From: a virus
Lineage: Duplodnaviria > Caudoviricetes
IMG/VR virus record: IMGVR_UViG_3300011335_000433
Span: 1 to 53,208 of that record
DNA length: 53,208 nt
Reading direction: 5' to 3' (one strand)
The position numbers and the translations under genes are program-made. The notes under the pieces were generated by a model. It had not been told where the DNA came from and ran no database searches. It saw only the letters and a list, made by a program, of their open reading frames with translations. Positions 19,922 through 46,087 of the stretch are shown here, in pieces (positions within the stretch are counted from its first letter, which is position 1; each line of letters starts with the position of its first letter).

Positions 19922-19979
19922 TTCATTCCTTTCGGTTCGGTGCAATTGTCACACCAGATGGTAAGTACATCAAGTGCGC

Positions 19980-28827: not shown

Positions 28828-29169
28828 TCAGGGTTGCAATCCGATTACATCGTTGTTGCCATCATTCTCGGGCGTTTGCGTGTTCTGCTGTGTGCTCACA
28901 ATGTATTCTTGATACCCGCCGGTAGAGATGTCGTTGGGGTCAACCGCAACACTAACATCAGGCCGAGGAAATTGCAAAGTGATGCGCTCAGTCTTCCTCG
29001 CCGGTAACCGGTATGGATCTTTTTGATCCGCACAACCCTGCTGGCACACCTTCAGCCCAGGAAAATTGGGGTCTGGCATGGCCTCAATGATGGGCCGCTT
29101 AAAGCGACATCTGTCGCAAATGAAAACTGCAATTACTGCGTTGCCCGTTGTATCAAGAAATCTAGGCAT
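28828..29169 (-). CDS. conserved virion-module protein with CxxC motifs
   Basis: CDRC...VCQQGC...PRPD. Confidence 0.75.
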   Translation of the reverse strand: MPRFLDTTGNAVIAVFICDRCRFKRPIIEAMPDPNFPGLKVCQQGCADQKDPYRLPARKTERITLQFPRPDVSVAVDPNDISTGGYQEYIVSTQQNTQTPENDGNNDVIGLQP

Positions 29170-30866: not shown

Positions 30867-31106
30867 TCACCAGTTTTGGTGTTTCTTTTTTGCAGATCCG
30901 CCACGCTTCATGCCGTCCGACTCTCCGCGCTCATTGGCACTGTGAAATTCTTTGAGCTTGCCCATCATGTCTTTGCCATGTTTTTTTTCTACGGCCTGAT
31001 ACGCCTTGCTTATAGCATCTTTTGATTGACCAATTGTTTTGCCATGCTTTGCATAGGTCTTGGTGTACAGGCTACGAACCGAAATTGGCAGTGATTCTTT
31101 GGTCAT
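30867..31106 (-). CDS. small basic protein with MKRGG tag
   Basis: AAGGAG RBS; ends MKRGGSAKKKHQNW. Confidence 0.7.
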   Translation of the reverse strand: MTKESLPISVRSLYTKTYAKHGKTIGQSKDAISKAYQAVEKKHGKDMMGKLKEFHSANERGESDGMKRGGSAKKKHQNW

Positions 31107-31116
31107 GTTTTCTCCT

Positions 31117-31368
31117 TTACCAGCCGGGACAATTCCAGCGCTTCAACGATGCTTTGGCCCTTGGCGCATCACCCTTGGAGTGCTCCACCACACCGCTCAT
31201 TCGGGCGCAGAAAGAGTCCTTGCGTGACCCGCCTTGGGGTTGCGGAGCCTTCAAATTTGATCCAGTCTCACGGTTGTATTTTGCCCGACCTTTGGCGGTT
31301 AATCCAGCGCCTTTGGACACTGGAAGCTTCTCACCACGGCCAACTGCCAAGGATGGATTTTTTGCCAT
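31117..31368 (-). CDS. small basic protein (DUF6321-like)
   Basis: GLTAKGRAKYN...NLKAP...SFCARM...RWNC pattern. Confidence 0.75.
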   Translation of the reverse strand: MAKNPSLAVGRGEKLPVSKGAGLTAKGRAKYNRETGSNLKAPQPQGGSRKDSFCARMSGVVEHSKGDAPRAKASLKRWNCPGW

Positions 31369-31371
31369 GGC

Positions 31372-31548
31372 TTACCAGCAAGAATTTTTAGCCGATCCAC
31401 CAGTTTTCATTTTGGCGGTTTTTGCTGACTGCTTGAAGGCGTCAGCCGTTGGCGCACCCTTTGTCCCAGGCTTGCGCATTTTTTCGCCAGATCCTTTAAG
31501 AATTCTTTGCTTTTTTGCAAAAATGTTTGCATACAAACCCTTTTTCAT
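31372..31548 (-). CDS. 58-aa basic protein with MKTGG tag
   Basis: Hand translation MKKGLYANIFAKKQRI...MRKPGTKGAPT...MKTGGSAKNSCW; fills the gap. Confidence 0.8.
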   Translation of the reverse strand: MKKGLYANIFAKKQRILKGSGEKMRKPGTKGAPTADAFKQSAKTAKMKTGGSAKNSCW

Positions 31549-31551
31549 AAA

Positions 31552-32052
31552 TTACCAGCAAGATTTAACCTTGCCGCCTTTTTGGTAAGAAGATGGATTG
31601 GATTTTTTCACAGCTTGGATTCTGCTCGACAGTTTGCCCATTTTGCTTTCCATGCCACGAGCCTCACGCTCTGCCGGGGAAAGATTCTGCTCACGGTCAG
31701 CCATCTGGTACCTGCTACCGCCCAAGCTTTCGTACTTGGCCTTCATGGCTTGGTGTTGCTTCTCCAGCCCAGACAACCCGGCAGTGTCTTCCTCCAAGCG
31801 CTTTTGACTTGCGGCTTTGTCCTTGGCCATCAATACCGCACGGCCAGGGCCTGGACGGCTAATCTTGGCGGCAAATGCCTGCAAATTCTTGATCAAATCG
31901 GGTTGTTTCACGCCACCACCATCAGCTTTCCCAGCCTTGCGTTTGACCGCATAGGCAATGGCCACGGCCTGCTTTTGCGGTTTTCCAGAAGCAATTTCAG
32001 CCTTGATGTTGGACTTGAATGCTTTGGGTGATTTGGACTTGATGAGTGGCAT
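31552..32052 (-). CDS. basic protein (KQAVAIA N-terminal module) with two GG tags
   Basis: MPLIK...GKPQKQAVAIAY; KADGGGV; ends YQKGGKVKSCW. Confidence 0.75.
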   Translation of the reverse strand: MPLIKSKSPKAFKSNIKAEIASGKPQKQAVAIAYAVKRKAGKADGGGVKQPDLIKNLQAFAAKISRPGPGRAVLMAKDKAASQKRLEEDTAGLSGLEKQHQAMKAKYESLGGSRYQMADREQNLSPAEREARGMESKMGKLSSRIQAVKKSNPSSYQKGGKVKSCW

Positions 32053-32055
32053 AAA

Positions 32056-32340
32056 TCACCCGCAGAAAATTGTGAGCGCCGCGCTTGTGGGCAACGTCAC
32101 ATGAATATCGGTTAAAAAGCGGATGCCGTTACCCGGCAACAAAGTTGAAAACGGGTTTGTTGGCGTAGCAGAAATGTTCACACGCAAAAGCACAGTGCCA
32201 GATGCACCGCCATCACGAAAGACAATTTCACCAGCAGTACCGCCCGTCAATAATTGATAGCCAGCAAGATTTGTTGCGCCAGAATAAATTGTGCCCGTCG
32301 AATCACGGTGCGCAGAAAACACATTGGTCAATGTTGACAT
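32056..32340 (-). CDS. small virion-module protein
   Basis: 94-aa beta protein, LPGNGIRF motif, GGAG RBS. Confidence 0.75.
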   Translation of the reverse strand: MSTLTNVFSAHRDSTGTIYSGATNLAGYQLLTGGTAGEIVFRDGGASGTVLLRVNISATPTNPFSTLLPGNGIRFLTDIHVTLPTSAALTIFCG

Positions 32341-32360
32341 ATCTCTCTCCGATTAAAAGC

Positions 32361-32376
32361 GGGGGCCGAAGCCCCC
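32361..32376 (-). terminator. C(UUCG)G hairpin, terminator-like
   Basis: GGGGGC-TTCG-GCCCCC followed by GCTTTT. Confidence 0.6.
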
Positions 32377-32383
32377 ACTCAGT

Positions 32384-33580
32384 TCAGCACATTGCTCGAC
32401 CGCCGCGCCTTTTGGGGGCAACCGTCACTGATTTCTCAGTTTTGGTCACTGACCCAGCAGGCAGTTCCGGTTTGCTGGCAAACAGGCCTTTAACGCCTTC
32501 ATACATGCGTTTTGGAGCACCCAGGATGCTTTCGCGCATCGCTTGGTTTTCCTTTTTTTGAACGTCTTTTTCAGTTTGCATGCGACGGGTTTCACTGTCA
32601 ATGACAGCGTCCCCATCAGCAAACTTTTTTACGTTGCCGCCCTTCTTAAAGGTGCCAGACTGCATGGTGTTAGCTATTGGCTTTGAAGCTGGCTTGCGTG
32701 GCATTGCGACGGGTTTGCCTGTGTCAACAGTTCCCCCCGTCGCGTAGGCTTTTTTTGCGGCAAGCCCTCCCATGCTGTAGCCACCGCCATTTCCGTTTTT
32801 TACGCCGCCAGTGGTGGTGTTGGTCACGCCGGGTTTGGCAGTGTTGGCAGGCCGATTTTCCCAATCGACGTTGCCACCTTTTGCAAAACCACCAGCGTTG
32901 CCCATCTTCACGCCGCCGCCAGACCTGTAGCCACCAGGAGCGCCTTTTTTGACTTCACCCGTGGTGCCATTAGTCATGCCTTTACCGGCGGTAACCATTT
33001 TGGTCTTGCCGGTTTTGCTCATGATAATGCCGCCACTAGCCTTCTTCATAATGCCACCAGAAGTCATGCCATGCGCCTTGCTGGCCGACATGGATTCATG
33101 ATGCTTCAGTTCTTTTTCCAGCGAAGCGCAGTCAGCACTGGTTGAGCCACCCTTCTTCATGCCGGTGAGGGCACGACGAACTTTGGCGGCACGAGCCATA
33201 CGGGCGGCGGCAGGCATTGAGGCCATGGCGGTGGGGCTCATGGCGCTCATGGGAGAGCGCATGCCACCAGCCATAGGAGCCGCAGGAGCCGCAGGCATTG
33301 CGGCCCCAGGCATCATCCCACCCATTTGCTTGTGAGCGACTTTGCCGCCCTTGGCATACTGGTTGGGGTTCATTGCCTTGCGACGATCGGCCATTGAAGG
33401 CTTTTTCGGCGCTTTGCCATGTTCAGCGGCCTCAAAGTCAGCCGGTTCGCAATGCATGGCTTTATGCCCTGCCATGCCACCGGATGCCATCTTGGAGTGA
33501 ACATTGCCACCCTTTTTGAGCTTCAGAATGACTGATGGCTCAGTGGTCATCATTTTGACCATCGGTTTAAATTGGCCCAT
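32384..33580 (-). CDS. basic low-complexity protein with about 14 xxxGG tags
   Basis: AAGGAGG RBS; repeated LKKGG, YAKGG, MKKGG, FAKGG, YATGG, FKKGG and others. Confidence 0.8.
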   Translation of the reverse strand: MGQFKPMVKMMTTEPSVILKLKKGGNVHSKMASGGMAGHKAMHCEPADFEAAEHGKAPKKPSMADRRKAMNPNQYAKGGKVAHKQMGGMMPGAAMPAAPAAPMAGGMRSPMSAMSPTAMASMPAAARMARAAKVRRALTGMKKGGSTSADCASLEKELKHHESMSASKAHGMTSGGIMKKASGGIIMSKTGKTKMVTAGKGMTNGTTGEVKKGAPGGYRSGGGVKMGNAGGFAKGGNVDWENRPANTAKPGVTNTTTGGVKNGNGGGYSMGGLAAKKAYATGGTVDTGKPVAMPRKPASKPIANTMQSGTFKKGGNVKKFADGDAVIDSETRRMQTEKDVQKKENQAMRESILGAPKRMYEGVKGLFASKPELPAGSVTKTEKSVTVAPKRRGGRAMC

Positions 33581-33591
33581 GGTGTGCCTCC

Positions 33592-34041
33592 TTAAACTTT
33601 CTGAGCGTACACAACGGTCAGGCGGATCACGCCCTGGGTTGTGACAATCGTGCCGTTGGGGTCGAGCGTAACGACGACAGAGGTATTGGTACCAATGTCG
33701 CTCATTGCAAGCAACTGTGCGGCGGTGAAGGTGAGGGCAATGCGACCGCCAGCGAACACGTTAGTCGAAGACACATATTGTGTGCCTGCGGCGGCGGTGC
33801 CGATGGTCATCGGAATTGTCGTAGCGGTTCCGCCACCAACCACTTCGTCCACAACCATATCGGCAACTAAGTCGATAATCTGTGAGTAAGCGGGGAGAGT
33901 GATGGTTGCGCTGGTAGCAGTGCCTGCGGCGGCAGTGGTAACAGTGGTGGTCTGCGACATGACGACAAAGCCGCCATCTACAGTATCCGTCAAAGTGCCA
34001 GAGCCAGCCCGAAGGGTAGAACCAAAGTAGGTTTGTGCCAT
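33592..34041 (-). CDS. capsid-associated (decoration-type) protein
   Basis: Directly downstream of the capsid gene; TLPAYSQIID motif; beta-rich. Confidence 0.65.
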   Translation of the reverse strand: MAQTYFGSTLRAGSGTLTDTVDGGFVVMSQTTTVTTAAAGTATSATITLPAYSQIIDLVADMVVDEVVGGGTATTIPMTIGTAAAGTQYVSSTNVFAGGRIALTFTAAQLLAMSDIGTNTSVVVTLDPNGTIVTTQGVIRLTVVYAQKV

Positions 34042-34064
34042 TGTCTTTTCTCCTTAATGGAGCA

Positions 34065-34078
34065 GGGGCCGAAGCCCC
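34065..34078 (-). other. C(UUCG)G hairpin after the major capsid gene
   Basis: GGGGC-TTCG-GCCCC. Confidence 0.6.
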
Positions 34079-34086
34079 CGCAAGGT

Positions 34087-35001
34087 TTAGACGCCGGGGG
34101 TACCGTACACCGCACGAGGATCGGTAAATCCAACCGTGTAGCGTTCGGTGGCCTTGTAGCGCATGGAGTCGGTTTCGAAGTCACCTTCCATGGTCTTTTC
34201 AAGGCGGCGGCGCATCAACAACTTCATGCCTTCAGGCGCATCGGTCTGCACCCAGAAAGCGGTAGATGAGGTCAAGCGCGAGATGACAGCGGCACCTTCG
34301 TCCAGCAAGCCAATAGACTTGACGGGGTTGATGTCGTTGTTGGCATTGCCAGCGCGTAGAACGCTCTTCAACAGCACTTCGGCCTGGAAGATGTTGCCAG
34401 GAGCCACAATCAATTGACGGGGCACCAAACGAATCTTCTTGCCGTTGTTGTCCACTGCTTGGCGAATCTGAATCAACATCTGCTCAAGCGATGTCTGGCT
34501 CAGGTTGGCGGCGGTGGTCAACTGGTTGCTGAAGGTGCCATTCACGATGGGGTGAGCGGTGTTGGTCAAAGACACACCGTCGCCGCCAGGGAAGGCGCTG
34601 TTGAAGGCTACGTTCAACACGTTGGCTGACAACAGTTCTTTGGTTTCCACCAAAGATTGTGCCAAGTGGCGTGCATAAACTTGACCGATGCGGATATGGT
34701 CGCCGTCTTCCACCAACACTTTGGTCAAAGCGAAGGCCAAGCCATACACTCGATACACATAGCGTTGCAGGAAGAGTACGCCACCTTGCTGATAGGTCAC
34801 CGGGGTGCCATCGGGCAATTGGGGCGCGGCTCCAAATCCATAAAGGACGGGCTCTTCATGATAGTTACGGGGAATGCCGTCTTCCTCGCGGAACACACGG
34901 CTCCACTCGTCGGCACGTTGGTCATAGACTCCGTCGAAACACTCATTGAGGATTGGCTCAACGATTGAACGGAAGTCCGTACTGCGCATTGGTGCGGCCA
35001 T
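34087..35001 (-). CDS. major capsid protein (HK97 fold, Mu gpT-like)
   Basis: 304 aa; GGDGVSL...HP, LSQTSLEQ, PRQLIVAP and YKATERY motifs; position after the scaffold. Confidence 0.88.
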   Translation of the reverse strand: MAAPMRSTDFRSIVEPILNECFDGVYDQRADEWSRVFREEDGIPRNYHEEPVLYGFGAAPQLPDGTPVTYQQGGVLFLQRYVYRVYGLAFALTKVLVEDGDHIRIGQVYARHLAQSLVETKELLSANVLNVAFNSAFPGGDGVSLTNTAHPIVNGTFSNQLTTAANLSQTSLEQMLIQIRQAVDNNGKKIRLVPRQLIVAPGNIFQAEVLLKSVLRAGNANNDINPVKSIGLLDEGAAVISRLTSSTAFWVQTDAPEGMKLLMRRRLEKTMEGDFETDSMRYKATERYTVGFTDPRAVYGTPGV

Positions 35002-35017
35002 TTTCTAGCTCCTTGTA

Positions 35018-35614
35018 TTAAGCAATTGCGGTGACAGCACCGAAGAATTGCGAGTTGGCACAAACAACGCGCACGATGGTGTACGTGTCACCCCATTCAT
35101 TGTCCACATAGGGAGCAAGATCAACAACACGCATCTGGCCCTGGACACCGCTACCAACGGCTGAAGCGGCATCTAAAGTTGCCTGCGACAAACCTGTGGT
35201 GGTGGAACCAGCAGTCACGTTGCTGAAGTTGAACTCGTTACCAATGGTGGTCTGAGCCATCGAAGCACTTGCCTGAATTTCATAAACGATGTTTTGGTCG
35301 TTGTAGAAATAAGCAATGCACGAGCCAGCGATGTACGCTGTGTTGGCAGGCCAGTTGTTGGACACGCGACGACGACCAGTAGTATCAGTAAACTCGACAC
35401 CTGCAAAAGCTCCAACCCATGCACCTGAAGTGGTGGCAGGGGTGATGGTGCCCAAGGTACCGCCGATGGCAGTCGTTTGGTAGCGGACGGGCTGGCCTTT
35501 GAGGATGGCCGTAGCGAACGCAGAGGGAATACCGTTAGCAAGCGCTTGAGCGCGATCCAGACCGGAGGGATGGAACGCAGGGCGCAAGCCAAACGGAGCA
35601 GAGGTTGAACTCAT
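35018..35614 (-). CDS. capsid cement / decoration protein
   Basis: APFGLRP N-terminus; immediately upstream of the capsid gene. Confidence 0.7.
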   Translation of the reverse strand: MSSTSAPFGLRPAFHPSGLDRAQALANGIPSAFATAILKGQPVRYQTTAIGGTLGTITPATTSGAWVGAFAGVEFTDTTGRRRVSNNWPANTAYIAGSCIAYFYNDQNIVYEIQASASMAQTTIGNEFNFSNVTAGSTTTGLSQATLDAASAVGSGVQGQMRVVDLAPYVDNEWGDTYTIVRVVCANSQFFGAVTAIA

Positions 35615-35623
35615 AGAGACTCC

Positions 35624-36172
35624 TTAACCGGAAAAAACCGGAGTGTTGGTGGGTTGCTGTTCAATAGAGCCAAAGCCTTCACCTTCCACACTGACCAATC
35701 GCCGTCCGTTGCTGTCACGCTGATTCTGAAGATTTTCCTGTTGAACAATGATCTTCTCAGCCTCTTCACGAGGTTTCTCGTGGTGCTGATAAGTCATGAT
35801 CTCTTGGTAAATGTCCATGGGCAGTTTAAACAACAACATCTCGTTGCAACTGACAAAGCCAACATGCTCACCAGACTTCACGCGATATTCGTCATAGCCG
35901 GGTATCTCATCCGCTTTCACGGGAACGTACCCAAGGCGCATTCGTTTATCGATGCTGTCGTAGCTGTTGGTTGTGGAGAGCCAGCAAAGGTGCCAACCAT
36001 CGACCGATGGAAGTTTTGGCAATGCTGATTGCGTCCATTCCTCGCTCCACATCTTTCGACGTTCCTGCGCAGAAATGAACTTATCTTCGGGTGCTTGGCG
36101 GCTTGCGTCCTCGCTGGAGCGATCATGGCGAGCACCAGCACCTAGAGATTTTTTTAAACGAGTTTCAGTCAT
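35624..36172 (-). CDS. conserved head-module protein
   Basis: GWHLCWL...RLGYVPV pattern; 182 aa. Confidence 0.75.
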   Translation of the reverse strand: MTETRLKKSLGAGARHDRSSEDASRQAPEDKFISAQERRKMWSEEWTQSALPKLPSVDGWHLCWLSTTNSYDSIDKRMRLGYVPVKADEIPGYDEYRVKSGEHVGFVSCNEMLLFKLPMDIYQEIMTYQHHEKPREEAEKIIVQQENLQNQRDSNGRRLVSVEGEGFGSIEQQPTNTPVFSG

Positions 36173-36186
36173 GTCAGTTCTCCGAT

Positions 36187-37167
36187 TCAGCGACCGCCTT
36201 GGCGGTCAAATTTAATGAATTGCTCTATCATTCGACGCTTGCGCTCGGGGTTGTCCCATGCACCGGCTTCCTTCATTGCTTTAACCCTTTCAGGTGAAAG
36301 AACAAATTGGTTCCGGTTGGTTCCCCCGTATGCGGCAGACGCTTCACGACCTGAACTACCCACTACATTCCTCGGTTTTCTGACGACTGGATTATCGTCG
36401 TTGGGGCCATTGTAACGATGGGGAAGTTCTTTTTGCAAACGGCTGTCAAGCTCGTCCCAATAATCGGCATCTGCGGGATCCCAGCCCTGGGTCACCATCA
36501 ACTCATCAATCTTTTTTGCGACCTTTGAATCGGTGTCAGAGGCGTCGGGCCGGTACCAAGAATTGCGGCGCATCCAGTCTGCCGCACCACGCTGTACAGC
36601 AGGGTCTGGCAAGAAATCTTGGGTTGGTGCCTTGATCTCACGCTCGGCTTGCGACCGGTGGGTTTGGAGCTTGCGCACATCCTCCTGGGCTGACTGCCAC
36701 AGGGTCTGCGCTTCGACCATTGACTCGCCATCATTGTTGGAGGTGGCTTCCATCATCTTCATCTTGGCGTATTCCAGGCGTACCTGGGCGTCCTCAATGT
36801 TCTTGTCGATGCGCACCAGGGATTGCTCCTTGGTGTTGCGCTCCAAATGGGACAGTCGGCGCTTGAACTCCTCGTTTTCACGGGCCAACGATTGAAGTCG
36901 GACGTCCTTTTCCTGGTTCGTTTTGCGAATCAGGTCTTTTTTGGCACGTCTACGGCTCCTTTTGGCGTCCCTGAGGCTGTCAGAGTCGTCGGGATGATCA
37001 TCATCCTCGTCAGAGAGCTGTCCGCCCTCCGCTTTTTGAGTGATTTGAACCTGACCATTGTCAGAATCCCCACCAATCAACAAATTTTCCGGTAATTCGA
37101 CCACCGCAGAGCCATCTTGTGACTCCTGAATGTCCAAATCATCGGCCTTTTGTTCAGTAGTTGCCAT
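36187..37167 (-). CDS. putative scaffolding protein
   Basis: Acidic N-terminus, long coiled coil, W..RNSW motif; lies between portal and capsid. Confidence 0.7.
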   Translation of the reverse strand: MATTEQKADDLDIQESQDGSAVVELPENLLIGGDSDNGQVQITQKAEGGQLSDEDDDHPDDSDSLRDAKRSRRRAKKDLIRKTNQEKDVRLQSLARENEEFKRRLSHLERNTKEQSLVRIDKNIEDAQVRLEYAKMKMMEATSNNDGESMVEAQTLWQSAQEDVRKLQTHRSQAEREIKAPTQDFLPDPAVQRGAADWMRRNSWYRPDASDTDSKVAKKIDELMVTQGWDPADADYWDELDSRLQKELPHRYNGPNDDNPVVRKPRNVVGSSGREASAAYGGTNRNQFVLSPERVKAMKEAGAWDNPERKRRMIEQFIKFDRQGGR

Positions 37168-37177
37168 GTTTTACCCC

Positions 37178-37633
37178 TTAAACGTAAGCTTTGAAGCTCA
37201 AAGGATCATCCGTCACCTTGGCGATCAGTTCGTGATCGTTCAAAGTCATGAATAACACCGGATCTTCACCCTCTTCACCCGTAACCTCGCGCTCCCAGCG
37301 GTCGCCACCCCATTTGGGGACGCGCACGTAGTCGCCGATCTGCGCCCATGAGCCCTCGGGCCATGATTGCATGGTGTCACGGTTTTTGAATGCCAAGGGG
37401 CCTATGGCTACCACTCTGCCGATCATGTTGTTCCACTTTTCGTTCTCCTTGGTTTCCTCCACCAAGATGATCCGACCAGAGGTCTTACGTTTGATGCGGC
37501 GCAATTGAACAATCACACGTCCACCGTATGGTTCTTGCCCTGGTTTAACCAGGGGGAAGGCCCATTCAAGCTCGACTGGATCGCTCACACCCTCATTCCC
37601 ACTGATAGTGGGGATCTTTTCCTTTTCACTCAC
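37178..37633 (-). CDS. GroES-like co-chaperonin
   Basis: RVIV...KTSGRIIL...GRVVAIGP...IGDYV...LNDHELIAKV; GTG start after CAGGAG. Confidence 0.8.
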   Translation of the reverse strand: MSEKEKIPTISGNEGVSDPVELEWAFPLVKPGQEPYGGRVIVQLRRIKRKTSGRIILVEETKENEKWNNMIGRVVAIGPLAFKNRDTMQSWPEGSWAQIGDYVRVPKWGGDRWEREVTGEEGEDPVLFMTLNDHELIAKVTDDPLSFKAYV

Positions 37634-37711
37634 ACTTTTCTCCTGACACCATATTTCAGGTGCATTCACATTTAAGCGCCTTGCGGCGCGGCCTCGGCCC
37701 CGGAGTGGGGC

Positions 37712-37891
37712 TTAATCTTGATTTTTTTCTTCGTCTAGCATGTTGTCGATCATGTCCATGGCCGCTTGTAGGCCCTGGTACTCGCCGACAATCCTTTGAT
37801 ACGCTTCCCAGGTTACAGCGTTACCCTGAGCCAGGGAAACGTGCATCTCTGCTTGGCGGATCTTGATCAAATGAATCAACCGTTCAATCAT
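37712..37891 (-). CDS. 59-aa helical protein
   Basis: Hand translation MIERLIHLIKIRQ...YQRIVGEYQGL...; ATGA coupling. Confidence 0.8.
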   Translation of the reverse strand: MIERLIHLIKIRQAEMHVSLAQGNAVTWEAYQRIVGEYQGLQAAMDMIDNMLDEEKNQD

Positions 37892-38046
37892 TTTTTCTTG
37901 GCTTGAGCCAGTCCACCAACGGGTTTCTTGGAGCTTTTGCTTCCGCCCTTAGGTTGCATTGCGGTGCCGTCAAGCTTCTCACCCATGGCGATGCGCTTGT
38001 GCTGGGGCACGAGGATCGTGCGTTGCTCGTATTCACTGGTTGACAT
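37888..38046 (-). CDS. small basic protein
   Basis: AAGGAG RBS before ATG 38046. Confidence 0.7.
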   Translation of the reverse strand: MSTSEYEQRTILVPQHKRIAMGEKLDGTAMQPKGGSKSSKKPVGGLAQAKKK

Positions 38047-40510
38047 TTGGTACTCCTTGCGGTGGTTGCATTTCAGGTGCGGCGGGTGCCACGGGTTGTT
38101 CAGGCAGGGCCTGAGGTTGAGCCTGAGCCTGAATAGTCTCATGCGTCAATTTTGCATTTTCAATTGCAATCTTGGTCTGATTATCCAGCGCTGACTTCTG
38201 CACGTCAGCCTGCAATTTTGCCTGATCGTATTGGTTATCGGCCTGATCCTTTTGGGTCTTGCGCTGGGTTTCAGCCATGCTGGTTTCCTTGACCACTTGG
38301 GCATCAGGCGGCAGGGCCTGTTTGGCCGCTTGCTGGCGCTGTTGGGCCACTTGGATCAACTGCTGGAAGGCTTGGCCAAACTGCGAGAACACCTCTTGAG
38401 TGTCGAGCATGACGTGGGCACCAACGGTGGTGTACAGCTTGTCGATAGTTGGGGTCAGGGCCGGGTCGTCATAGTCCGTGATGGGCTTGCCACGGGCCTT
38501 GGTGACATACCCGTTGGAGCGGTTCAAGTACCACAAGGTCATGTGTTGCTTGATGTGCTCGATCAGGTTGTTCAGGAAGGCTGGATCTGCAAATGGGCTT
38601 TGGCCAAAGAACGGGTTCAAACCGAATTGCAAGTGGTCTTGGATGTGGGCAATGTGATCTTGCTGGAGGTAGGCGTATGAAGCCTGACCAATCAGCATGG
38701 CCGCATTCTCGTCTGCTGAGGTGCGCTGTTCGGGTGCTGGCACGTTCTTCATCAGTTCATTGATGTTGGGCACCTTCATCTGCTTGAGCACCCGGCTCAA
38801 CACGCTTGGCATGTTGAATTGATCGGGGTGCTTTTCAGCCAAGGACAACACAGCTTGGTTTTGGGCCATGCGCTGGGTTTCGCTGAAGATGTGCGGATCG
38901 GACACCGGCACCACGTCAGTGACTTTGGAAAAGTCATCGCGGGTGATCTGCAAATCAACGACCTCATCGGCCATCTTCATTTCATCGAAGTGCCACCGGT
39001 TTAACCGACACAGGATCTTCAAAACCCTGGCTTGGCTGGCATGCATCCGGGCATGGATGGCTGAGAACACCGCCGCCCCTTGCTCAATCAGGGCCTGGGT
39101 GGTGCCCACAGGGGCCTGTGCGCTTACGTCAGCGATCTTTTCCTCGCTGGTGGTCACTACCCCCTTAGCCGCCTTGTCCAAGAAGCCCAGAAGCTCCAAA
39201 AGCACCTGTGAGGGTGGGTTGAACGGCATGGGCATGGCAATCTGGCGGATGTCGTTCACGCCGGGTGCGCCCTCGATCTCCACAATCTGGGTGACTTCCA
39301 CCTGTTGGCTTTGGCCGCTGATCTTTGCGCCCTTGAGTTTCAACATGGTGGCGGCGTTGTTGATGTGCGCCGAGTCCAACAATGCACGCAGGGAGCCGGT
39401 CAGGGCCGCTGACAAGCCGCCGATCAGGTGGGGCAGGCCAATGGCATAGGCACCACGCCACGGGATGAATTTGAACTCCACCACCCAATCCAGCTTGGTC
39501 ATGGTTTCATCTTGCTCTTCCCAATTTCGATACAGGCCGACAACTTCGTTGTCCAACTCATCAATCATCAGGATGTACGGAGCCATCGTGCCCTTGGAGT
39601 ACTTGTCGTCATCAAGCTCCAGGTAGGTGTAGATGTGATAGACCTTGCGCAGGCCATCCTGGTTGTCCTCCATCTTTTTGCCTTCGATCTTGTCGTTGGC
39701 TTTTTGGGTCTTGGAGGGTTCAAATTCCATCGTCGCTTTGACGACGTTGATGTCACGGTACATCCCCATGCGGATGCGGCGCTGGAACTGCTGGGCGGTG
39801 ATCTCGTGAACTTCAGCCGCACGCTGGGCGGTGTAGAAGTTGGTGGCCGCAAAGGGCAGGATCACCCGGTCGATGGGCAGGAACTCCACGCATGGGCGCT
39901 TCTTCTCCTCGTCAAACCACAGCTTGAAGTATTGCGACCCGCCCAATGGCAGTTGGGTCAGCATTTGCTCTTGCTCGTCGCGGAACTCCTCGATCTGCTC
40001 AGTGATCTGCCAATTCAAGTAGTCGCGCTTGCGCTCGGCAGTGGCCGTCTTCATGTCGTCCATCTTGCCCAGGATCTTGGTCTTCACCGGGCCATCGGGC
40101 GGAAACAACTCTTTGATTGCACGGGCGGCAAAGTCCACACAGCCCTCGGCCATGACGGGGTGAACCACTTTTGACGCACCCATGAAGGTTGCGCCACCGG
40201 GAGCGTCATTGCCCATGCCGGTGCGGCGGATGCCCTCTTCATACTGCTTGTCACGCAGTTCACGGGCCTGCTTGTCGGTTTCCAGCAGGTCGATGTACTC
40301 CATGGCCAACGAGCTTAGGGTGCCGTTGTTGATTGAGTCAGCGAGGTTGGAATAGAAGTCCGGGTTCATCTCCGGGCCGTCATCGGGCATTGTGATGATT
40401 GCTGAACCGTCAGGCTGTTCCTCTGACTGGATCTCAGGCAAATCAATCAGCGCACTGCCGTCAGCTTGTTCGCTGATGCCCATTTCGTCGATGTTTTCTT
40501 CGTCCATCAT
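38033..40510 (-). CDS. portal protein (P22-like)
   Basis: 825 aa; HPVMAE, ELFPPDGPVK, LPLGGSQYFK and APVGTTQAL motifs; Gln-rich C-terminal barrel. Confidence 0.88.
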   Translation of the reverse strand: MMDEENIDEMGISEQADGSALIDLPEIQSEEQPDGSAIITMPDDGPEMNPDFYSNLADSINNGTLSSLAMEYIDLLETDKQARELRDKQYEEGIRRTGMGNDAPGGATFMGASKVVHPVMAEGCVDFAARAIKELFPPDGPVKTKILGKMDDMKTATAERKRDYLNWQITEQIEEFRDEQEQMLTQLPLGGSQYFKLWFDEEKKRPCVEFLPIDRVILPFAATNFYTAQRAAEVHEITAQQFQRRIRMGMYRDINVVKATMEFEPSKTQKANDKIEGKKMEDNQDGLRKVYHIYTYLELDDDKYSKGTMAPYILMIDELDNEVVGLYRNWEEQDETMTKLDWVVEFKFIPWRGAYAIGLPHLIGGLSAALTGSLRALLDSAHINNAATMLKLKGAKISGQSQQVEVTQIVEIEGAPGVNDIRQIAMPMPFNPPSQVLLELLGFLDKAAKGVVTTSEEKIADVSAQAPVGTTQALIEQGAAVFSAIHARMHASQARVLKILCRLNRWHFDEMKMADEVVDLQITRDDFSKVTDVVPVSDPHIFSETQRMAQNQAVLSLAEKHPDQFNMPSVLSRVLKQMKVPNINELMKNVPAPEQRTSADENAAMLIGQASYAYLQQDHIAHIQDHLQFGLNPFFGQSPFADPAFLNNLIEHIKQHMTLWYLNRSNGYVTKARGKPITDYDDPALTPTIDKLYTTVGAHVMLDTQEVFSQFGQAFQQLIQVAQQRQQAAKQALPPDAQVVKETSMAETQRKTQKDQADNQYDQAKLQADVQKSALDNQTKIAIENAKLTHETIQAQAQPQALPEQPVAPAAPEMQPPQGVPNVNQ

Positions 40511-40511
40511 T

Positions 40512-42785
40512 TCACTTTCGTTTGGTCAACTCAAGTCGCATTGTGTCCAGATCTTTGTGGATGGACACTTTTCTTGATTTTGCCTTGTATGGTTGCTCTT
40601 CGTCTTCGCCTCTGCGCATAGCCAAGTGACGCTGGGCCATGATGTTGCTTTCAGGGAAGGCGTGGAAGTCGTCATCGGACAAGCCTGGGTGACGGCCACC
40701 AATTGATCCGCCGCCTGCTTTGCGCACGATTTTGATGGGCTGGGGTGCCACGTATTCCTTGCCACGGGCCTTTTCCTGCTCGTGCGGGGGATCGATCTCA
40801 TACTCACCTTTGTTGGCCATGGCGTGCTTGATGTGAGCTTCGCCAACATGGTGGGTGAAAGAGGTTTCATGGCCGACGTTGCTGGTGGACTCGGTGGGCG
40901 TAGTCATCAGGATGTGACCGGCCTCTTTGCCGTTTTTGGACTTGAAGCGATTCTTTGGCAGGTAATCCTCATCCTTGAACCGCGAGTCTGTGGGGATCAT
41001 GTGGGGAGTGCCATCGTCATTCTTCCCAACCTGAACCAAGCGAGGGTGAAGGACGTTTTGCTTCTGGTAGTCGTAGCGTCGTGCCTCTCCATCTTTGCCG
41101 GTCAAGGTGGTGTGGCCATAGTGTGCTTTTTCAGGCGTGGTAGCCTTGCCGCTGGGGCCAAAGTGACCCTCGGGGCCTTCTTTTCTTTCCTCTTCGCTCA
41201 AGCGGGATTGCTCACGACCAGCAGACCAGTACTTGGCGTGGGTGATGTGCTGTTCCATCTTCTTTGACATGGGTGAGCCGCGCTTGACGTCGGTGACCAA
41301 GTACGAACCTTTGGGCGGGGTTTTGTTGCCCTGCTCATTGACAAAGTCACCCTTGTTGTTTTCTGCCAACACGGTGTTGCTTATCCGACCCTTGTCACGG
41401 GCCACGTTTTCAGCAATCTCTTTGCCGTGCTTAACCTTGGGGCCAGTGTTGGAGTGGGTGACGTGGTATCCGTTTTCAGGGTCATGCAACTCATTGGTTT
41501 TGCCGTATGAGTTGGCAATGATGGGCGGCTTGCCATTGGCCTTGCGTTGCTCATTTAGGTGACGGATCACATGACGGGATGTGGTGTCGGTTTCATCCAC
41601 CACGTTGGGGCGGAACAACATGCGCTTGTTTTTCTTGTCAGCTTTTTCTGCCGCACTGCGCATTGAACCGGTGTGGGCCAAGATCCAGTCCTTGGTCATT
41701 GCCGGGTCGTGCTTGGCGATGGCGTGTCCCAATCGACGGCTTGCCGCCGCCGCATACTGTGACTCGGCATTGGGTGCAAAGCAGGTGCCTTTGCTGGTGT
41801 CCACGATACCGTGCTCATCAGATCCACCGCCACAGCCAGCGGTCTGGCCAGGGCAGGTGTTGAGCACATGGTACTTGGTGTCCTTGCCATGGCCCGATGG
41901 GTACAGGGCGTGGCCAGCGATGCCCTTGGAGGCGTAGCCAACGTGTGATCGGCCCTCTTTGTCGTATTCGTGGTTGACTGTATCGAGCTTTTCAGACTCA
42001 TCCAGCGTGTCGCGGTTGCCCTTAATGAATTTGGCTTGACGCAAGCGATTGAGTGCGGCCTCCTCCTCGGCGTGCTGTTCTTCCAGTGGACGCTTGAAGT
42101 GATCTTCCAATGCGTTTTTGTGGGTCTTGCTGATCTGGCCAAGGGTCAATGGTGCGCGGTGCTCGGAGCCATAGACGTTGGAGCGGGCCTCAGCCATGTT
42201 CTTGATGCCCTCAGCGCTGGCCTTGGGGTTGCCCTCCAGCATGTGCCGGGGAACCACGATGCCCTTGACCCCTCCTGGGCCTTCAGCCTTGACGGTCACG
42301 CGCTTGCTGGTGTCGCCCTTGTTGGCCAACTCAGACTTCATTGCATCGACCGACTTGGCCGACCCACCCTTGGCCATCCCCGGGGGCCCAGGGGGCTTCA
42401 TGGCGCTCATTGCCTGACCCTGTGGGGTCATCTGCAAGATGTTGCTTGGAGGCTGTCCAAGGGGGTTTGACTGGCCTTGCAACTGGGGTGCGGTGGCTTG
42501 GGGCTGAGGCTGACCGGGTTGGCCACCCATCGGTTGCTGTGACTGTGCGGTCATCATCTGGTGACCGGGCTGGTCGGTGCTCATGTCCACACCACCAACG
42601 GGCAAGCCAGACTGTGTGGCCAATCCACCAGGGGGCACGCCGTCATTGTCTTCCCAGTCGTTTGAGGGCGGCAGGTAGGGCTTGGGATCTACATTGGGAG
42701 CTTCATTCACGCCGATCTGCTGAATGTCGTAGGTGTTGGGCCGCTGGTTCAATGCCAAGCGCATTTGGGCAAGGGTTGGTTGCAC
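40512..42785 (-). CDS. large protein with Gp88-like (Cys-cluster) domain flanked by GG tags
   Basis: TCPGQTAGC...TCFA, FRPNVVDETD, NSYGKT and YHVTHS motifs; GTG start after AAGGAG. Confidence 0.65.
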   Translation of the reverse strand: MQPTLAQMRLALNQRPNTYDIQQIGVNEAPNVDPKPYLPPSNDWEDNDGVPPGGLATQSGLPVGGVDMSTDQPGHQMMTAQSQQPMGGQPGQPQPQATAPQLQGQSNPLGQPPSNILQMTPQGQAMSAMKPPGPPGMAKGGSAKSVDAMKSELANKGDTSKRVTVKAEGPGGVKGIVVPRHMLEGNPKASAEGIKNMAEARSNVYGSEHRAPLTLGQISKTHKNALEDHFKRPLEEQHAEEEAALNRLRQAKFIKGNRDTLDESEKLDTVNHEYDKEGRSHVGYASKGIAGHALYPSGHGKDTKYHVLNTCPGQTAGCGGGSDEHGIVDTSKGTCFAPNAESQYAAAASRRLGHAIAKHDPAMTKDWILAHTGSMRSAAEKADKKNKRMLFRPNVVDETDTTSRHVIRHLNEQRKANGKPPIIANSYGKTNELHDPENGYHVTHSNTGPKVKHGKEIAENVARDKGRISNTVLAENNKGDFVNEQGNKTPPKGSYLVTDVKRGSPMSKKMEQHITHAKYWSAGREQSRLSEEERKEGPEGHFGPSGKATTPEKAHYGHTTLTGKDGEARRYDYQKQNVLHPRLVQVGKNDDGTPHMIPTDSRFKDEDYLPKNRFKSKNGKEAGHILMTTPTESTSNVGHETSFTHHVGEAHIKHAMANKGEYEIDPPHEQEKARGKEYVAPQPIKIVRKAGGGSIGGRHPGLSDDDFHAFPESNIMAQRHLAMRRGEDEEQPYKAKSRKVSIHKDLDTMRLELTKRK

Positions 42786-42794
42786 GATTACTCC

Positions 42795-44597
42795 TTATTG
42801 GGTGGACACTGAGCCACCGGATTCATAAAGTGGGATGCCGTTCTTCTTGACATCTTGGCGCATTTCTTCGGTGATGGGGAAGTAATGCAAGTTGCGGTAT
42901 TCTGGCGGAAACTCTATTTGCTTGCCCTCAGAATTATGTCGCAGTGAACCGTTGTCTAATTTTTCTGCATGCCCATTCAATTCGGTCTTTACACCGTATT
43001 TCTTGCCGATGCTGTTGAGGATGTTGGGCACCTTCTTGTCGTAGAAGCCTTTCATTCCTTCACCGCCAGTCACAATGTTTGCACCACTGACCATTCTTTC
43101 GCCCATTGGGTTTGGTTCAGTTGAAAGCAATTGTTTGGCGGGGTCTTTACCAATGTACTCTTGCAACTTATCTTCATCGACAGTGTCGTCAGCAACTCGA
43201 TGGCCATTTTTGTCAAAAGCCTTGAAGTAATACGGGTGCGTTTCTTTGTTTGGATGTGGGTTGGGCACCAGCATGATTGAATCAATGTGCTGTGCCAAGC
43301 TGTACCGGTCGGCCTGCTCCGCACCCGGTGTTACCACCACACCATGGTAGCCCTTCTCAGCCGCATGATGGATCAAGCGTTTCAATGCCATCTCTTCCCA
43401 GTTCTTTTTGAATGGGGCGTTGGGGACGGCATTGCCAAACTTATTATTAATATCAGCAAATGAGCGCTCTACTCTGTTGGCTTCTTCTAACAATGGCTCA
43501 ATCTCAGCCTGAAGATCTGGCCTGCCTGAATTTCTGTTGAACTCGTTGCCCAATTCCATGGCCCGTTTTCTTGCGGCAACATATTCAGGATCGTTCCAAT
43601 CTATGCTTTTGTGGTCACCACGGTACCCTTTTTCACGCCCCTGCTGGTGCCAGTCGGACTGCAACTCCTCAAGGTGCAATAGCTTCTTTTCAGGGCCACG
43701 ACTGGGCTTGATGTCCAGTGATGGGCGCATTGATTCAGGCATACCCTGCAATGCGGCTTGGGCCTCTTCAATGGTGTTGTAGTGCTGGGATTTGTTGCCA
43801 GACTTTTTGTTGACCAGGGTGTATCCCATGTCTCCAGGTGCGGTGCGGTCTTTGAGGCGCAGGCTGGCCAGGATGCCGGGTTCGCCACCAAAGTGGGCTC
43901 CAACGCCTTGAAATTGTTCTGGCAGTTCTTTTGTTTTTGCTTCAATTTCGCGTATTAACCTTGCAAGTTGGCCAACACGCTTTTCTTGTTCTGGTGTTCT
44001 GCCATGGTAGGGCATGTTGCGAAGTTCATTATGAGCAGTCTCAATCTGCTTCATGTAATCTGGTTGTTTTGGAGCCTTGATCAGCATCTCGCGATAATTG
44101 TCGCCACCGGGTAGGGTGTATCCACCGTGATATGTTGAGCTTGGGTTTTCGGTTGCACGTTCTTCCGCAAGGCGCAAAGCCTGATCCATGTGGTTGGTGC
44201 GCAACCTTTGCATTTCTTCTGCCGCAAGTCTGCGGTATTCCTCCGATGTGTCAGCCCCTTCGCTGGCATATTCTCTGGCGCGTACCCTGATCAGATCATT
44301 TGCATTTCTGCGAAGTATTTCTTTGCTTGGCAGGGCTGGCTTTTCGCCTAACACCTTTTCACCAATGGCTGGCGCAGGCTTGGAGCCCAATGCCGCCATG
44401 AACTGCTCATGGGTCATCTTGGGGGCGTTGAGCAACTCACCCAGGCCACGCTCGGCGATCTCTGCTTGCTTAACCCCAGGGATGGACATCAGTTCCTTGA
44501 GGAACTCAGATCCAGTGCCGACCTTGCGGCGCAATAGCCCTGCGGCCTTGTCCAGGGATGAATAGAAGGGCTTGCCTTGGCCGACCAGTTCTCTCAC
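42795..44597 (-). CDS. polyvalent-protein-type domain (EELQSDWHQ family)
   Basis: FYSSL, LPGG.NYRE, LEELQSDWHQ, APFKK.W and GMKGFYD motifs; ends YESGGSV. Confidence 0.7.
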   Translation of the reverse strand: MRELVGQGKPFYSSLDKAAGLLRRKVGTGSEFLKELMSIPGVKQAEIAERGLGELLNAPKMTHEQFMAALGSKPAPAIGEKVLGEKPALPSKEILRRNANDLIRVRAREYASEGADTSEEYRRLAAEEMQRLRTNHMDQALRLAEERATENPSSTYHGGYTLPGGDNYREMLIKAPKQPDYMKQIETAHNELRNMPYHGRTPEQEKRVGQLARLIREIEAKTKELPEQFQGVGAHFGGEPGILASLRLKDRTAPGDMGYTLVNKKSGNKSQHYNTIEEAQAALQGMPESMRPSLDIKPSRGPEKKLLHLEELQSDWHQQGREKGYRGDHKSIDWNDPEYVAARKRAMELGNEFNRNSGRPDLQAEIEPLLEEANRVERSFADINNKFGNAVPNAPFKKNWEEMALKRLIHHAAEKGYHGVVVTPGAEQADRYSLAQHIDSIMLVPNPHPNKETHPYYFKAFDKNGHRVADDTVDEDKLQEYIGKDPAKQLLSTEPNPMGERMVSGANIVTGGEGMKGFYDKKVPNILNSIGKKYGVKTELNGHAEKLDNGSLRHNSEGKQIEFPPEYRNLHYFPITEEMRQDVKKNGIPLYESGGSVSTQ

Positions 44598-46087
44598 AGT
44601 GGGCGCTCCTCAATCTCAAGGTGGTGGGCGTGGGTCACTCGACCGCCACGGGCTTTGTGGTTCACATGCTCTTCGGCCATCCACTCTTGGGGGCCAACAC
44701 AGCCACCACCGGCAAAGCCAAATGTCTTCTTCTTGAACGGTTGAGCGCGGGGCAGATCGGACATGCCAGCGGCCTTGTTGATTGACTTCACCTCGGCATC
44801 AGTCAGCACCTTATTGACCTTCATCGATCCACCAATCAGCCAGTTGCCCGTCATGTTGGGGTTGGTCTTGTATCTATAGTGCCCACCCTTGGGGATCTGG
44901 TCGGTGATGTGCGACTTGACGGGGATCACCTTGCCCTGAGCGTTGGTGCCACGTCTGGTGGCCTCTGATTGCCAATCCACATCGTCTGGCATCTCCACCT
45001 CAGCCCATGCATGGTTGGCCGGTCGGCGGTCGGGCGCTGTCAGCTTGGGGTCAGACTTCTCACCGATGTGTGTGGCGATGGGCAGGTCACCGGCATGCCA
45101 GCCGGGACGGTAAGCCAAGGCACCGATCTTTGATTTGACCTTTCCGTTGGCCATCTCACCCTCTTTGGCGTCCGTCCATTTGTTCATCTCCACCGGGGTG
45201 TTGGCGTCCACAAACAGGGGAAACAGCTTGCCTGGATGGTCGGGGTGGACGCGGAACAACTTGTAGGCCTTGACGGTCTTCTTGGGCTCCACAGAGCCAC
45301 CCTTGGCCATGTTGAGGTCGTCTTTAGTGGTGTCGTAGGTGCCACGGTTGCCGATAGCCGACTTGATCATCTTGGGGTCGTAATGAACCACTTCGCTCAG
45401 GTCGCCATTGCGGTACTGCATCAAGGCGTCATGGCCCTTTGCCATGGCTCGGGTCATCACCTCTTTGCCGATGTAGCCCTTCTTTTCATATGCCTTTTCG
45501 ACCATCTTCTCGGCCTTCATGCGGTCAACGCCCAGCCTGATCAAAGCCTCGACCATTGGGTCTTTGGAGATCTCGCCGGTGATTTTGAGCGGGTTCTTCA
45601 CCTTGGCTTTTAGGGGCATCATGTACCCACCGATCTGACCGGGCTTGAGGTTGCCGGTGCGACGGATGTTCTCGAACTCTCGAGCGATTGGCTCAGATGA
45701 TGGGTGGCTCTTGAGCAAGTCAAGCGCCTCTTGGTTGGGTGATCCGCTGTAGCCGCTGGAATGGGCCGCAGAGGGCGTCATGTACACACCGGCACCCAGT
45801 GACCCCTCCTTGCTCATCTTGAGCTTGCTGAGGGCTTCCTGGCCCTTGCCGCCTTCGCTCTGCGTGGTGCTGTGGTACAGGCGCATTGGGGTGTGACTGC
45901 CCTCGAGGAACTGATCAAGGTTGGTTGATCCACCACCGGCTTTGGGCTGTGGCTTCACCGGGGGCAGACCATGCATCTTTTCCAGGTTGCCCTGAGCCTG
46001 TTGCTTCCTGCGCTGGGCCTCCACCACGGGCGCATAGGATTGCCTCAGGCGCTGAAAATCAGCCAGTTGCTGTGGGGTTAGTGGCAC
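44594..46087 (-). CDS. ADP-ribosyltransferase-like (ART-PolyVal-type) two-domain protein
   Basis: RLYHST, GAGVYMTP, KNPL, GHDAL, EVVHYDPKMIKSAIGN; second domain KAYKLF...RPGWHAG...WAEVE. Confidence 0.7.
   Translation of the reverse strand: MPLTPQQLADFQRLRQSYAPVVEAQRRKQQAQGNLEKMHGLPPVKPQPKAGGGSTNLDQFLEGSHTPMRLYHSTTQSEGGKGQEALSKLKMSKEGSLGAGVYMTPSAAHSSGYSGSPNQEALDLLKSHPSSEPIAREFENIRRTGNLKPGQIGGYMMPLKAKVKNPLKITGEISKDPMVEALIRLGVDRMKAEKMVEKAYEKKGYIGKEVMTRAMAKGHDALMQYRNGDLSEVVHYDPKMIKSAIGNRGTYDTTKDDLNMAKGGSVEPKKTVKAYKLFRVHPDHPGKLFPLFVDANTPVEMNKWTDAKEGEMANGKVKSKIGALAYRPGWHAGDLPIATHIGEKSDPKLTAPDRRPANHAWAEVEMPDDVDWQSEATRRGTNAQGKVIPVKSHITDQIPKGGHYRYKTNPNMTGNWLIGGSMKVNKVLTDAEVKSINKAAGMSDLPRAQPFKKKTFGFAGGGCVGPQEWMAEEHVNHKARGGRVTHAHHLEIEERPL

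Follow-up and report, generated by a model that had tools for sequence, protein, structure and literature searches.

The late region of a tailed-phage genome from an uncultured freshwater lineage, IMG/VR record IMGVR_UViG_3300011335_000433, carries a seven-residue peptide motif that recurs in proteins of otherwise dissimilar kinds. The window analysed here is the whole of that linear record (53,208 bases), with nearly all of its genes on the minus strand. Between the gene for the terminase (terL) and that for the portal lie three large open reading frames (ORFs) of 497, 600 and 757 amino acids (aa), referred to below as cargo ORFs 1 to 3. The portal gene is followed by genes for a Cpn10-like protein, a putative scaffold of 326 aa, proteins of 182 and 198 aa, the capsid protein, a protein of 149 aa, and a basic protein of 398 aa, here termed the hub; after these come genes for proteins of 94, 166, 58, 83 (DUF6321) and 79 aa and an adaptor-like protein (Table 1). 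The motif is a heptad, or tag, with the consensus [YFLMK]-[AK]-x-G-G-x-[VAI], and it is concentrated in the hub, the small basic proteins and the cargo ORFs, with a single copy in the scaffold.

Table 1. Principal features of the late region, by position in the window
Feature	Length (aa)	Position	Strand	Remarks
terL		46398-47825	-	Terminase_6N
Cargo ORF 1	497	44594..46087	-	N-terminal helix, tag, ART-PolyVal, tag, phrog_30118, two tags, tail THAHHLEIEERPL
Tags of cargo ORF 1		45923-45943, 45290-45310, 44696-44716, 44636-44656	-	motif
Cargo ORF 2	600	42795..44597	-	single module; ends YESGGSV (42807-42827) plus 3 residues
Cargo ORF 3	757	40512..42785	-	low-complexity N-terminal module, tag, GP88-like domain, tag, basic C-terminal tail
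Tags of cargo ORF 3		42357-42377, 40701-40721	-	MAKGGSA, KAGGGSI
Portal	825	38033..40510	-	phrog_1216; no tag; adjoins last cargo ORF
Putative scaffolding protein	326	36187..37167	-	acidic, coiled-coil; KAEGGQL (37015-37035) in acidic N-terminal region
Major capsid protein	304	34087..35001	-	Phage_capsid_4; no tag
Hub	398	32384..33580	-	basic, mostly disordered; 12 heptads (pattern of the preliminary description)
Examples of hub tags		33500-33520, 33338-33358, 32867-32887, 32726-32746, 32630-32650	-	motif
Small basic protein	166	31552..32052	-	N-terminal 42 residues match phrog_2423; YQKGGKV (31567-31587), then KSCW end
Small basic protein	58	31372..31548	-	core phrog_16028; tail MKTGGSAKNSCW, tag 31390-31410
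DUF6321 small basic protein	83	31117..31368	-	no heptad; ends in W
Small basic protein	79	30867..31106	-	MKRGGSA (30891-30911), then KKKHQNW end

A preliminary description of this DNA had listed heptads throughout these proteins, and every one that it quoted is present, on the minus strand, in the gene named. Near the C-termini of three small basic proteins are YQKGGKV (residues 156-162 of 166), MKTGGSA (47-53 of 58) and MKRGGSA (66-72 of 79). The hub does carry multiple copies, but the count of about 14 given for it falls to 12 when that description's own pattern is applied. The scaffold copy, KAEGGQL (residues 45-51), departs from the last position of the same pattern; it is nonetheless a conserved feature, since KA[DE]GGxV or KKEGGTV is present between residues 38 and 60 in 12 distinct homologues of the scaffold. 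Less came of the copy reported in an 867-aa protein: YKEGGNA, at residue 794, is present but at background level, and it is not conserved in the homologue from the related genome MW202545.

Background levels were set by 2000 composition-preserving shuffles of each protein. With the pattern of the preliminary description, the hub's 12 matches compare with a shuffle mean of 0.74 and the 4 matches of the small basic proteins with 0.25, neither number being reached in any of the 2000 shuffles; the three cargo proteins hold 6 against 0.95 (reached in 1/2000). The other eight head proteins, with 1 match against 0.59, are at background, as are the remaining 10,855 residues of the window (7 against 4.29, reached in 296/2000). 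A stricter pattern, [FYMLKIW][AK].GG.[VAI], gave 7 against 0.13 in the hub, 3 against 0.07 in the small basic proteins and 5 against 0.14 in the cargo proteins, an enrichment of 35- to 50-fold that none of the 2000 shuffles matched; the other head proteins had none, and the rest of the window had 2 against 0.68. Another tight pattern, composed post hoc from the instances found, gave 13 matches in a six-frame translation; every one is a minus-strand match lying within 30891-45310, and the three plus-strand frames are without any.

Because the first two patterns were shaped by inspecting the window itself, its relatives serve as the independent test. A search of IMG/VR by portal yielded 76 loci, 67 with portals 75-98% identical to that of the window and 9 with portals only 30-32% identical. 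Motif counts were made on the distinct proteins of the 67 close loci, with genes taken as simple ORF picks. Proteins of at least 150 aa encoded between terL and portal carry the motif in 65 of 68 cases (207 motifs against 4.7 after shuffling), and homologues of the hub in all 28 (241 against 3.0). It is missing from the portals (0/45), terminases (0/34) and capsid proteins (0/27), and upstream of terL it is present in only 5 of 289 proteins (5 motifs against 1.0). Other proteins downstream of the portal have it in 47 of 377 cases (65 against 4.7); these 47 include the 12 scaffold homologues, each with one copy, and 29 proteins that end in W.

A look at all GG dipeptides in the relatives, made without any pattern (2572 contexts), recovers the same signature. 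The third residue before GG is enriched for Y (3.3-fold) and L (1.5-fold), the second before it for A (2.6-fold) and K (2.1-fold) but for L merely 1.2-fold, and the second residue after it for V (3.0-fold). The middle and +1 positions are variable; directly after GG, K occupies 83 of 185 contexts and S 41.

Chance, or the composition of proteins rich in Gly and Lys, is a scarcely credible source of such a motif. The hub is indeed 15% Gly, and the GG pair is itself enriched there (20 observed against 9.0 expected). However, composition-preserving shuffles never attained the observed counts of the strict pattern, the heptad is kept position by position in relatives and absent from other Gly-rich proteins of the window, and this explanation is already contradicted by both the shuffles and the relatives' counts. 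The motif is genuine, and its frequency far exceeds what chance would give. A signal in the DNA, for instance a boundary or recombination sequence, can likewise be rejected: codons at the motif differ among its copies, and glycine codon use at GG is mixed. It follows from this codon variation that selection acts on the peptide, and on the sequence evidence the heptad is a lineage-specific short linear motif under selection at the amino acid level.

The densest carrier of the motif is the hub. Its homologues (26 distinct sequences of 325-586 aa, with 46-83% identity to the window protein in the alignment) have 5-11 strict copies; Gly makes up 12-15% of their residues and K plus R 16-20%, and the ending ...KKRGG...C is shared by almost all of them. 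The window hub, too, ends in Cys. The N-terminal 25 residues are almost invariant and end in a tag, and several of the GG pairs are invariant as well, while the spacers between tags are variable and of low complexity. More distant loci gave tblastn matches of 29-44% identity. An AlphaFold2 model of the hub has a mean predicted local distance difference test score (pLDDT) of 49.1 and a predicted template modelling score of 0.17, with 243 of 398 residues below 50, no strands and a few helices. This model and that of the 497-aa cargo protein, the only two considered, are both of modest confidence. The notion that such a protein acts as a hub is compatible with a mostly disordered chain bearing 5-11 copies of one motif. 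Pfam returned no family for it at E <= 0.01, and hence no match to PF10685, the KGG stress repeat; look-ups in the ESM Atlas of the hub and of the 182-aa protein led solely to unnamed viral clusters. About half of the hub homologues (e.g., L003:8023-9732) have an insert of some 60 residues with a folded look, which includes THTGPKGHVAKVYKD and is not present in the window hub.

In the small protein of 58 aa, the 50-position profile of phrog_16028 covers residues 1-48, and what lies beyond is the tail MKTGGSAKNSCW, in which G50, G51, C57 and W58 are invariant across 48 aligned family members. At least 7987 relatives of the protein were found by a word-based search. In the T7-like cyanophage KBS-P-1A, the pelagiphage HTVC168P and the roseophage CRP-5, the same core ends in a few lysines without a tag; in the first two of these phages it sits between the scaffold and capsid genes. 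Some relatives fuse this core through MKKGG to a DUF6321 module, the two being encoded by separate, adjacent genes in the window. The DUF6321 module itself (31117-31368, minus strand) matches the C-terminal ends of eight PHROG families with profiles of 99 to 928 positions, and thus recurs elsewhere as the C-terminal part of larger phage proteins; the last residues of its T7-like versions are ...KWKC, and a terminal Cys is also found in the hub. The 326-aa protein is judged to be the scaffold from its gene position and composition.

The cargo ORFs place the motif in a different setting, that of borders between domains. In the 497-aa protein the tags are KAGGGST (residues 49-55), MAKGGSV (260-266), FAGGGCV (458-464) and KARGGRV (478-484); as the preliminary description held, they bracket the domains, here an ART-PolyVal match to Pfam at residues 153-250 and a match covering the whole phrog_30118 profile at residues 270-459. 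YESGGSV occupies residues 591-597 of the 600-aa protein. In the 757-aa protein, MAKGGSA (137-143) and KAGGGSI (689-695) enclose the GP88-like domain, and the basic tail ends in DTMRLELTKRK. The AlphaFold2 model of the 497-aa protein (mean pLDDT 57.5) has its tags in or bordering segments scored below 50 (40-54, 259-268 and 464-497), between domains that are better predicted. A sequence search of the PDB with the three cargo proteins gave only two matches to ribosomal protein L1, both for the 497-aa protein, at E of about 0.5.

In each of the 43 loci where the terL-portal interval is complete, the cargo amounts to 906-2415 residues and carries 2-10 tags. The modules found there vary, with the 600-aa module in 30 of these loci, the GP88-like domain in 21, ART in 18 and phrog_30118 in 15; relatives' cargo domains also include ASCH, PcfJ-like, PBECR5 and GP88. 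The only universal module (43/43) is the low-complexity N-terminal segment of 136 residues in the 757-aa protein (positions of about 42357-42785). The same modules are reordered, fused or split from one relative to another, and the splits fall at a tag. BLAST alignments between the window cargo and relatives end at residues 266, 482-484, 597 and about 145; in a set of 62 large proteins there were 1766 internal alignment ends, and 668 of them came no farther than 10 residues from a motif (127 +/- 21 with random placement). When 20 sequences of differing architecture were aligned, just two columns proved invariant, G263 and G264. Junctions often have a doublet of tags 8 residues apart, a neutral or basic copy followed by KA[ED]GGxV.

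Several further elements were noted in the cargo ORFs. Behind its last tag, cargo ORF 1 closes with the 13-residue tail THAHHLEIEERPL, whose amino acids are kept despite many synonymous changes and which ends the first cargo ORF in 14 distinct sequences regardless of the preceding domain (44594-44636, minus strand, in the window); in 12 of these 14 a GG tag precedes it. The stop of the first cargo ORF overlaps the start of the next in the manner of ATGA. The universal low-complexity module (42357-42785, minus strand) contains the additional motifs PT[LI]xQMR[LM]AL, IGxNEAP, one or two copies of [LM]P[VI]GG[VI]D, and SNILxMTPQGQ. Lastly, many tags are followed by a [DE]xM[RK]LxL element, which is also found at the extreme C-terminus of the last cargo ORF.

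Placement of this kind invites the reading that the heptad is a passive joint, a favoured domain cap or flexible linker that spread with the shuffled modules through its tolerance of fusion and that nothing reads specifically. Such a joint would be expected in coil of low confidence and at homology break-points, and would tolerate variable middle and +1 positions, all of which are seen. The remaining positions (aromatic or K, A/K, GG and V) are nevertheless conserved against the fast-diverging background of the hub, where GG pairs are invariant; there are copies at free C-termini that are followed by an invariant C and W; the scaffold has a single conserved copy; and other multidomain proteins of the same genomes, the tail proteins and portal, do not have the motif. 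Its varied codons, moreover, do not fit a joint made by recombination at the DNA level. We regard the passive joint as an unlikely explanation.

It is equally instructive to ask whether the motif belongs to the domains that it flanks. This idea was rejected, because the family profiles stop short of the heptad and because CRP-212 and the T7-like phages have the domains without it: gp38 of the Roseobacter phage CRP-212, for example, contains a phrog_30118 domain with no flanking tags. Judged by these comparisons, the tag is something added to the families and not a part of them. It also keeps company with the hub. Among 44 loci collected through the 58-aa core, each with at least 3 kb of upstream sequence (31 with short flanks and 5 parsing failures having been set aside), a protein with at least four tags is encoded upstream in 8 of the 10 whose core is followed by a tag and in none of the 34 whose core is not (Fisher 2.5e-7, a value that ignores kinship among the loci). 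The proposal that the heptad is a modular label therefore gains from four directions: its position at junctions and C-termini, its coincidence with homology break-points, its addition to untagged families, and its co-occurrence with a multi-copy protein.

Relatives at greater distance help to place the origin of the arrangement. The closest public record is MW202545, an uncultured 57.5-kb circular genome, and the Caulobacter phages RW, KcrB, RLK and GB2A are farther away; among 29 close relatives, capsid proteins are 92-98% identical. Phage RW shares the portal, the Cpn10-like protein, the scaffold, the 182-aa and 198-aa proteins and the capsid protein. Cargo ORFs, hub, small basic proteins and the scaffold tag were all absent from RW, whose late region has 2 loose motif matches in 8936 residues. 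In the nine distant loci terL adjoins the portal, and no tags occur in the fragments available. One locus (L104), from a lineage whose capsid protein is only 38% identical, encodes a three-tag "mini-hub" of 170 aa plus further small tagged proteins, from which it follows that the tag is older than the cargo arrangement.

How, then, might the heptad be used? Two readings, a docking tag and a protease site, come close to one another. The one that we prefer, tentatively and with somewhat less than even confidence, is that the heptad serves as an address, or for docking, in the capsid interior, with the disordered protein as its multivalent hub. The tagged set, comprising the scaffold, the small basic proteins, the hub and every module of the polyvalent cargo, would be destined for the interior of the head, each module displaying its own tag in a flexible linker. 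A common partner in the assembling procapsid, either a conserved surface of a head protein or the hub's own tags, would read the tag, so that any domain acquiring one would be co-assembled and later ejected; the hub would be polyvalent, its basic charge tying the network to the DNA. That the tagged proteins reside in the virion, that the motif is bound rather than cut, and what its partner would be are inferences. If the tag is for docking, it becomes understandable that the residues behind it are conserved, that C and W at the terminus do not vary, that tags come in doublets (by avidity), that there is a hub, and that no peptidase turned up. The persistence of residues after the tag, both in the THAHHLEIEERPL tail and as C57 and W58 of the 58-aa protein, argues against the discard of a downstream peptide.

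The second reading takes the heptads for maturation-protease sites in a polyprotein-like system, with cutting at or near GG. Processing of this kind would free the cargo domains, trim leaders and tails, remove the scaffold and chop the hub into basic peptides associated with DNA. It would suit the presence of tags at every module junction and the interchange of fused and split genes exactly at the tag, as well as the conserved scaffold copy that RW is without; it would also suit tags that come after invariant N-terminal leaders and in accessible linkers of low pLDDT. T4 gp21 offers a parallel. The adenovirus protease AVP is another (PMC4246237), and Iyer et al. hold that polyvalent proteins must be processed into units (PMC5512222).

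A peptidase to do the cutting was sought in several places. No peptidase family was detected by Pfam at E <= 0.01 in 50 window proteins, nor by PHROGs at E <= 0.001, and a match to Peptidase_C5, a clan CE cysteine protease, was likewise lacking. None was found in 13 cargo proteins of relatives or in the three of the window, the metallopeptidase MPTase included, and the complete relative MW202545 has none annotated. A universal enzyme module is missing from the cargo, where the low-complexity segment alone is ubiquitous, and four head families (182-aa, 198-aa, scaffold and GroES-like) show no invariant His together with Ser or Cys. The strong conservation of peptides after the tag tells against cleavage, as do the preferences for a hydrophobic residue at P5 and A/K at P4, which differ from an adenovirus-type site, and the lack of any site in the capsid protein or portal. 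The cutter may instead be a host protease or an unusual one. All told, cleavage strikes us as a rather unlikely account of the heptad, albeit one to be taken seriously.

A number of observations weigh against an address function. Tags stand at every junction, often as doublets, although one per protein would suffice for an address; cleavage sites would account for this arrangement no less well. The scaffold, too, is tagged, in the manner of protease substrates in other viruses, and the tagged set as a whole (scaffold, small basic proteins, multi-site protein and cargo) resembles the substrates of the T4 and adenovirus maturation proteases. Tags also lie behind conserved N-terminal leaders, as a propeptide site would: at residues 21-27 of the hub, 49-55 of cargo ORF 1 and 45-51 of the scaffold. 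To this may be added that no cultured phage in a collection of 50,697 records has a hub, and that the window is about 66% complete by CheckV.

As a sub-case of docking, the tags could be partners for one another. In such a stickers-and-spacers scheme the hub would condense with DNA in the procapsid through tag-to-tag contacts and tagged clients would partition into the condensate, an exchangeable arsenal thus being loaded and later injected by phase partitioning, in place of a fixed binding site or a protease; basic flavours of the tag would be on the hub and small proteins, and acidic ones, KA[DE]GGxV, on the scaffold and cargo. The 5-11 strict copies between variable, low-complexity spacers, the predicted disorder, the two charge flavours, the doublets and the association of tag with hub are all in keeping with it. 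The tags may resemble kinked aromatic-glycine segments. Against this version stands the distant L104 lineage, which has only a mini-hub of three tags. We think it improbable.

Three other roles were considered and put aside. An acyl shift (N-O or N-S) at G|S/T/C that would lead to self-cleavage is unlikely, K being the most frequent residue after GG. Pure DNA binding is unlikely as a general role, given the D/E before GG in the scaffold and many cargo tags. Mimicry of a GroEL-binding segment or GroES mobile loop, suggested by the Cpn10-like protein that the phage encodes, is rated low because most tags have, after GG, a polar residue and a single hydrophobic one and because RW keeps its Cpn10 gene without tags.

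Several known systems invite comparison. In phage T4, the capsid-targeting sequence (CTS) is cleaved off by the prohead protease. It allows varied, fast-evolving, injected anti-defence proteins to share one short conserved signal for the head (PMC3012670). The preliminary description had drawn this analogy, and its logic stands: here, too, varied cargo has one conserved signal, with genes in the head module. In its detail the analogy gives way, since the CTS is an N-terminal leader to the scaffolding core, whereas the present tags are internal or near the C-terminus, are allotted per module, and are also on the scaffold. An N-terminal leader of about 10 residues is not what is seen, the tags being internal or, in the small proteins and at cargo ends, 2-34 residues from the C-terminus; nor did Pfam and PHROGs disclose a T4-type prohead protease.

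Family 1 encapsulins provide a second comparison, in which short, glycine-containing and mostly C-terminal peptides load unrelated cargo into a shell of HK97 fold (PMC10960027). Like those peptides, which are modular and transferable, the heptads have glycine, spaced hydrophobic anchors and a basic residue, and they would be transferable in the same way. Encapsulin cargo, in contrast, has one peptide each and a known luminal pocket to receive it, whereas tags here are multiple, often internal, and belong to a phage capsid with DNA. The heptad consensus differs from the C-terminal GSLxIGSLK-like peptide of 7-12 residues, and only some copies are C-terminal.

Adenovirus offers a precedent for GG-containing cleavage sites. 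The consensus of its protease, adenain, is (M/I/L)-X-G-G|X, with the hydrophobic residue at P4; in the heptad, the hydrophobic enrichment lies one residue farther from GG. AVP cuts a Met-Arg-Gly-Gly substrate, DNA-bound virion precursors and the L1 52/55k scaffold, with the peptide pVIc as a cofactor (PMC4246237), so that both systems have GG-containing sites in DNA-bound precursors and a packaging scaffold. pVIc is a short, basic C-terminal peptide, and the small proteins described here end in a basic peptide with Cys and Trp after GG; the resemblance may be taken as a lead only.

The cargo ORFs also invite comparison with the polyvalent proteins of Iyer et al. They place unrelated effector domains in one polypeptide beside virion genes, as with ART-PolyVal and phrog_30118. 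The 2017 study proposed that the metallopeptidase MPTase processes polyvalent proteins (PMC5512222), and MPTase is not detected in the present cargo. A conserved junction motif does not figure in the main text of that study, in which the words "linker" and "glycine" do not occur (PMC5512222). Literature searches found nothing that describes the heptad.

For the small basic proteins that end in W, a parallel may be found in the J protein of phiX174, which is small and basic, binds DNA and has an aromatic C-terminus that the capsid interior holds, although the two belong to unrelated viruses with different capsid folds.

A few neighbouring features deserve mention. The Cpn10/GroES-like gene (37178-37669, minus strand; Pfam 6.6e-06, phrog_3188) lies in the head module between portal and scaffold, and it is also retained in RW and the distant lineage. 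In the slot of the 182-aa protein (35624-36172, minus strand), three loci (L019, L021 and L026) have two short ORFs of 87 and 59 aa instead, which may reflect a split or a frameshift; PDB searches with the 182-aa and 198-aa family profiles gave nothing useful. A gene resembling HNH homing endonucleases (29162-29791, minus strand; phrog_655, 4.8e-41) sits among tail genes, the adaptor-like gene lying immediately upstream of it. The SU10 adaptor family is matched by two genes (19289-19945 and 29788-30858, minus strand), by one of them strongly (1.2e-27) and by one weakly (6.6e-04). Finally, the 867-aa protein (12821-15424, minus strand) has two G[DE]YV..D/P..V.ALG.G elements at residues of about 755-830, a weak match to a tape-measure PHROG and a conserved C-terminus, and gp38 of CRP-212 ends in the similar GEYVLPADVV; the 867-aa protein, in which no GG tag is conserved, probably has an internal or ejection role.

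A phage that injects anti-defence enzymes needs some rule for admitting proteins to its head, and few such rules are known, among them the T4 CTS, MuF or portal-bound fusions, and the Dar system of P1. In the phages considered here, a single label of seven residues appears to unite the scaffold, the small basic and likely DNA-binding proteins, the hub, and highly shuffled polyvalent effectors, which makes four kinds of protein. Should the address reading be true, the heptad would be a portable tag for loading foreign proteins into a capsid of HK97 fold, and a functional parallel to the encapsulin system. Should it be a cleavage site, it would betray an unrecognised maturation protease, of phage or host, in an apparently protease-free podophage, and polyvalent proteins that have no peptidase would gain the processing step that they lack. 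Under either reading, the motif would permit candidate head-interior or injected proteins to be listed, by sequence alone, across phage contigs from uncultured marine and freshwater sources, which number in the thousands.

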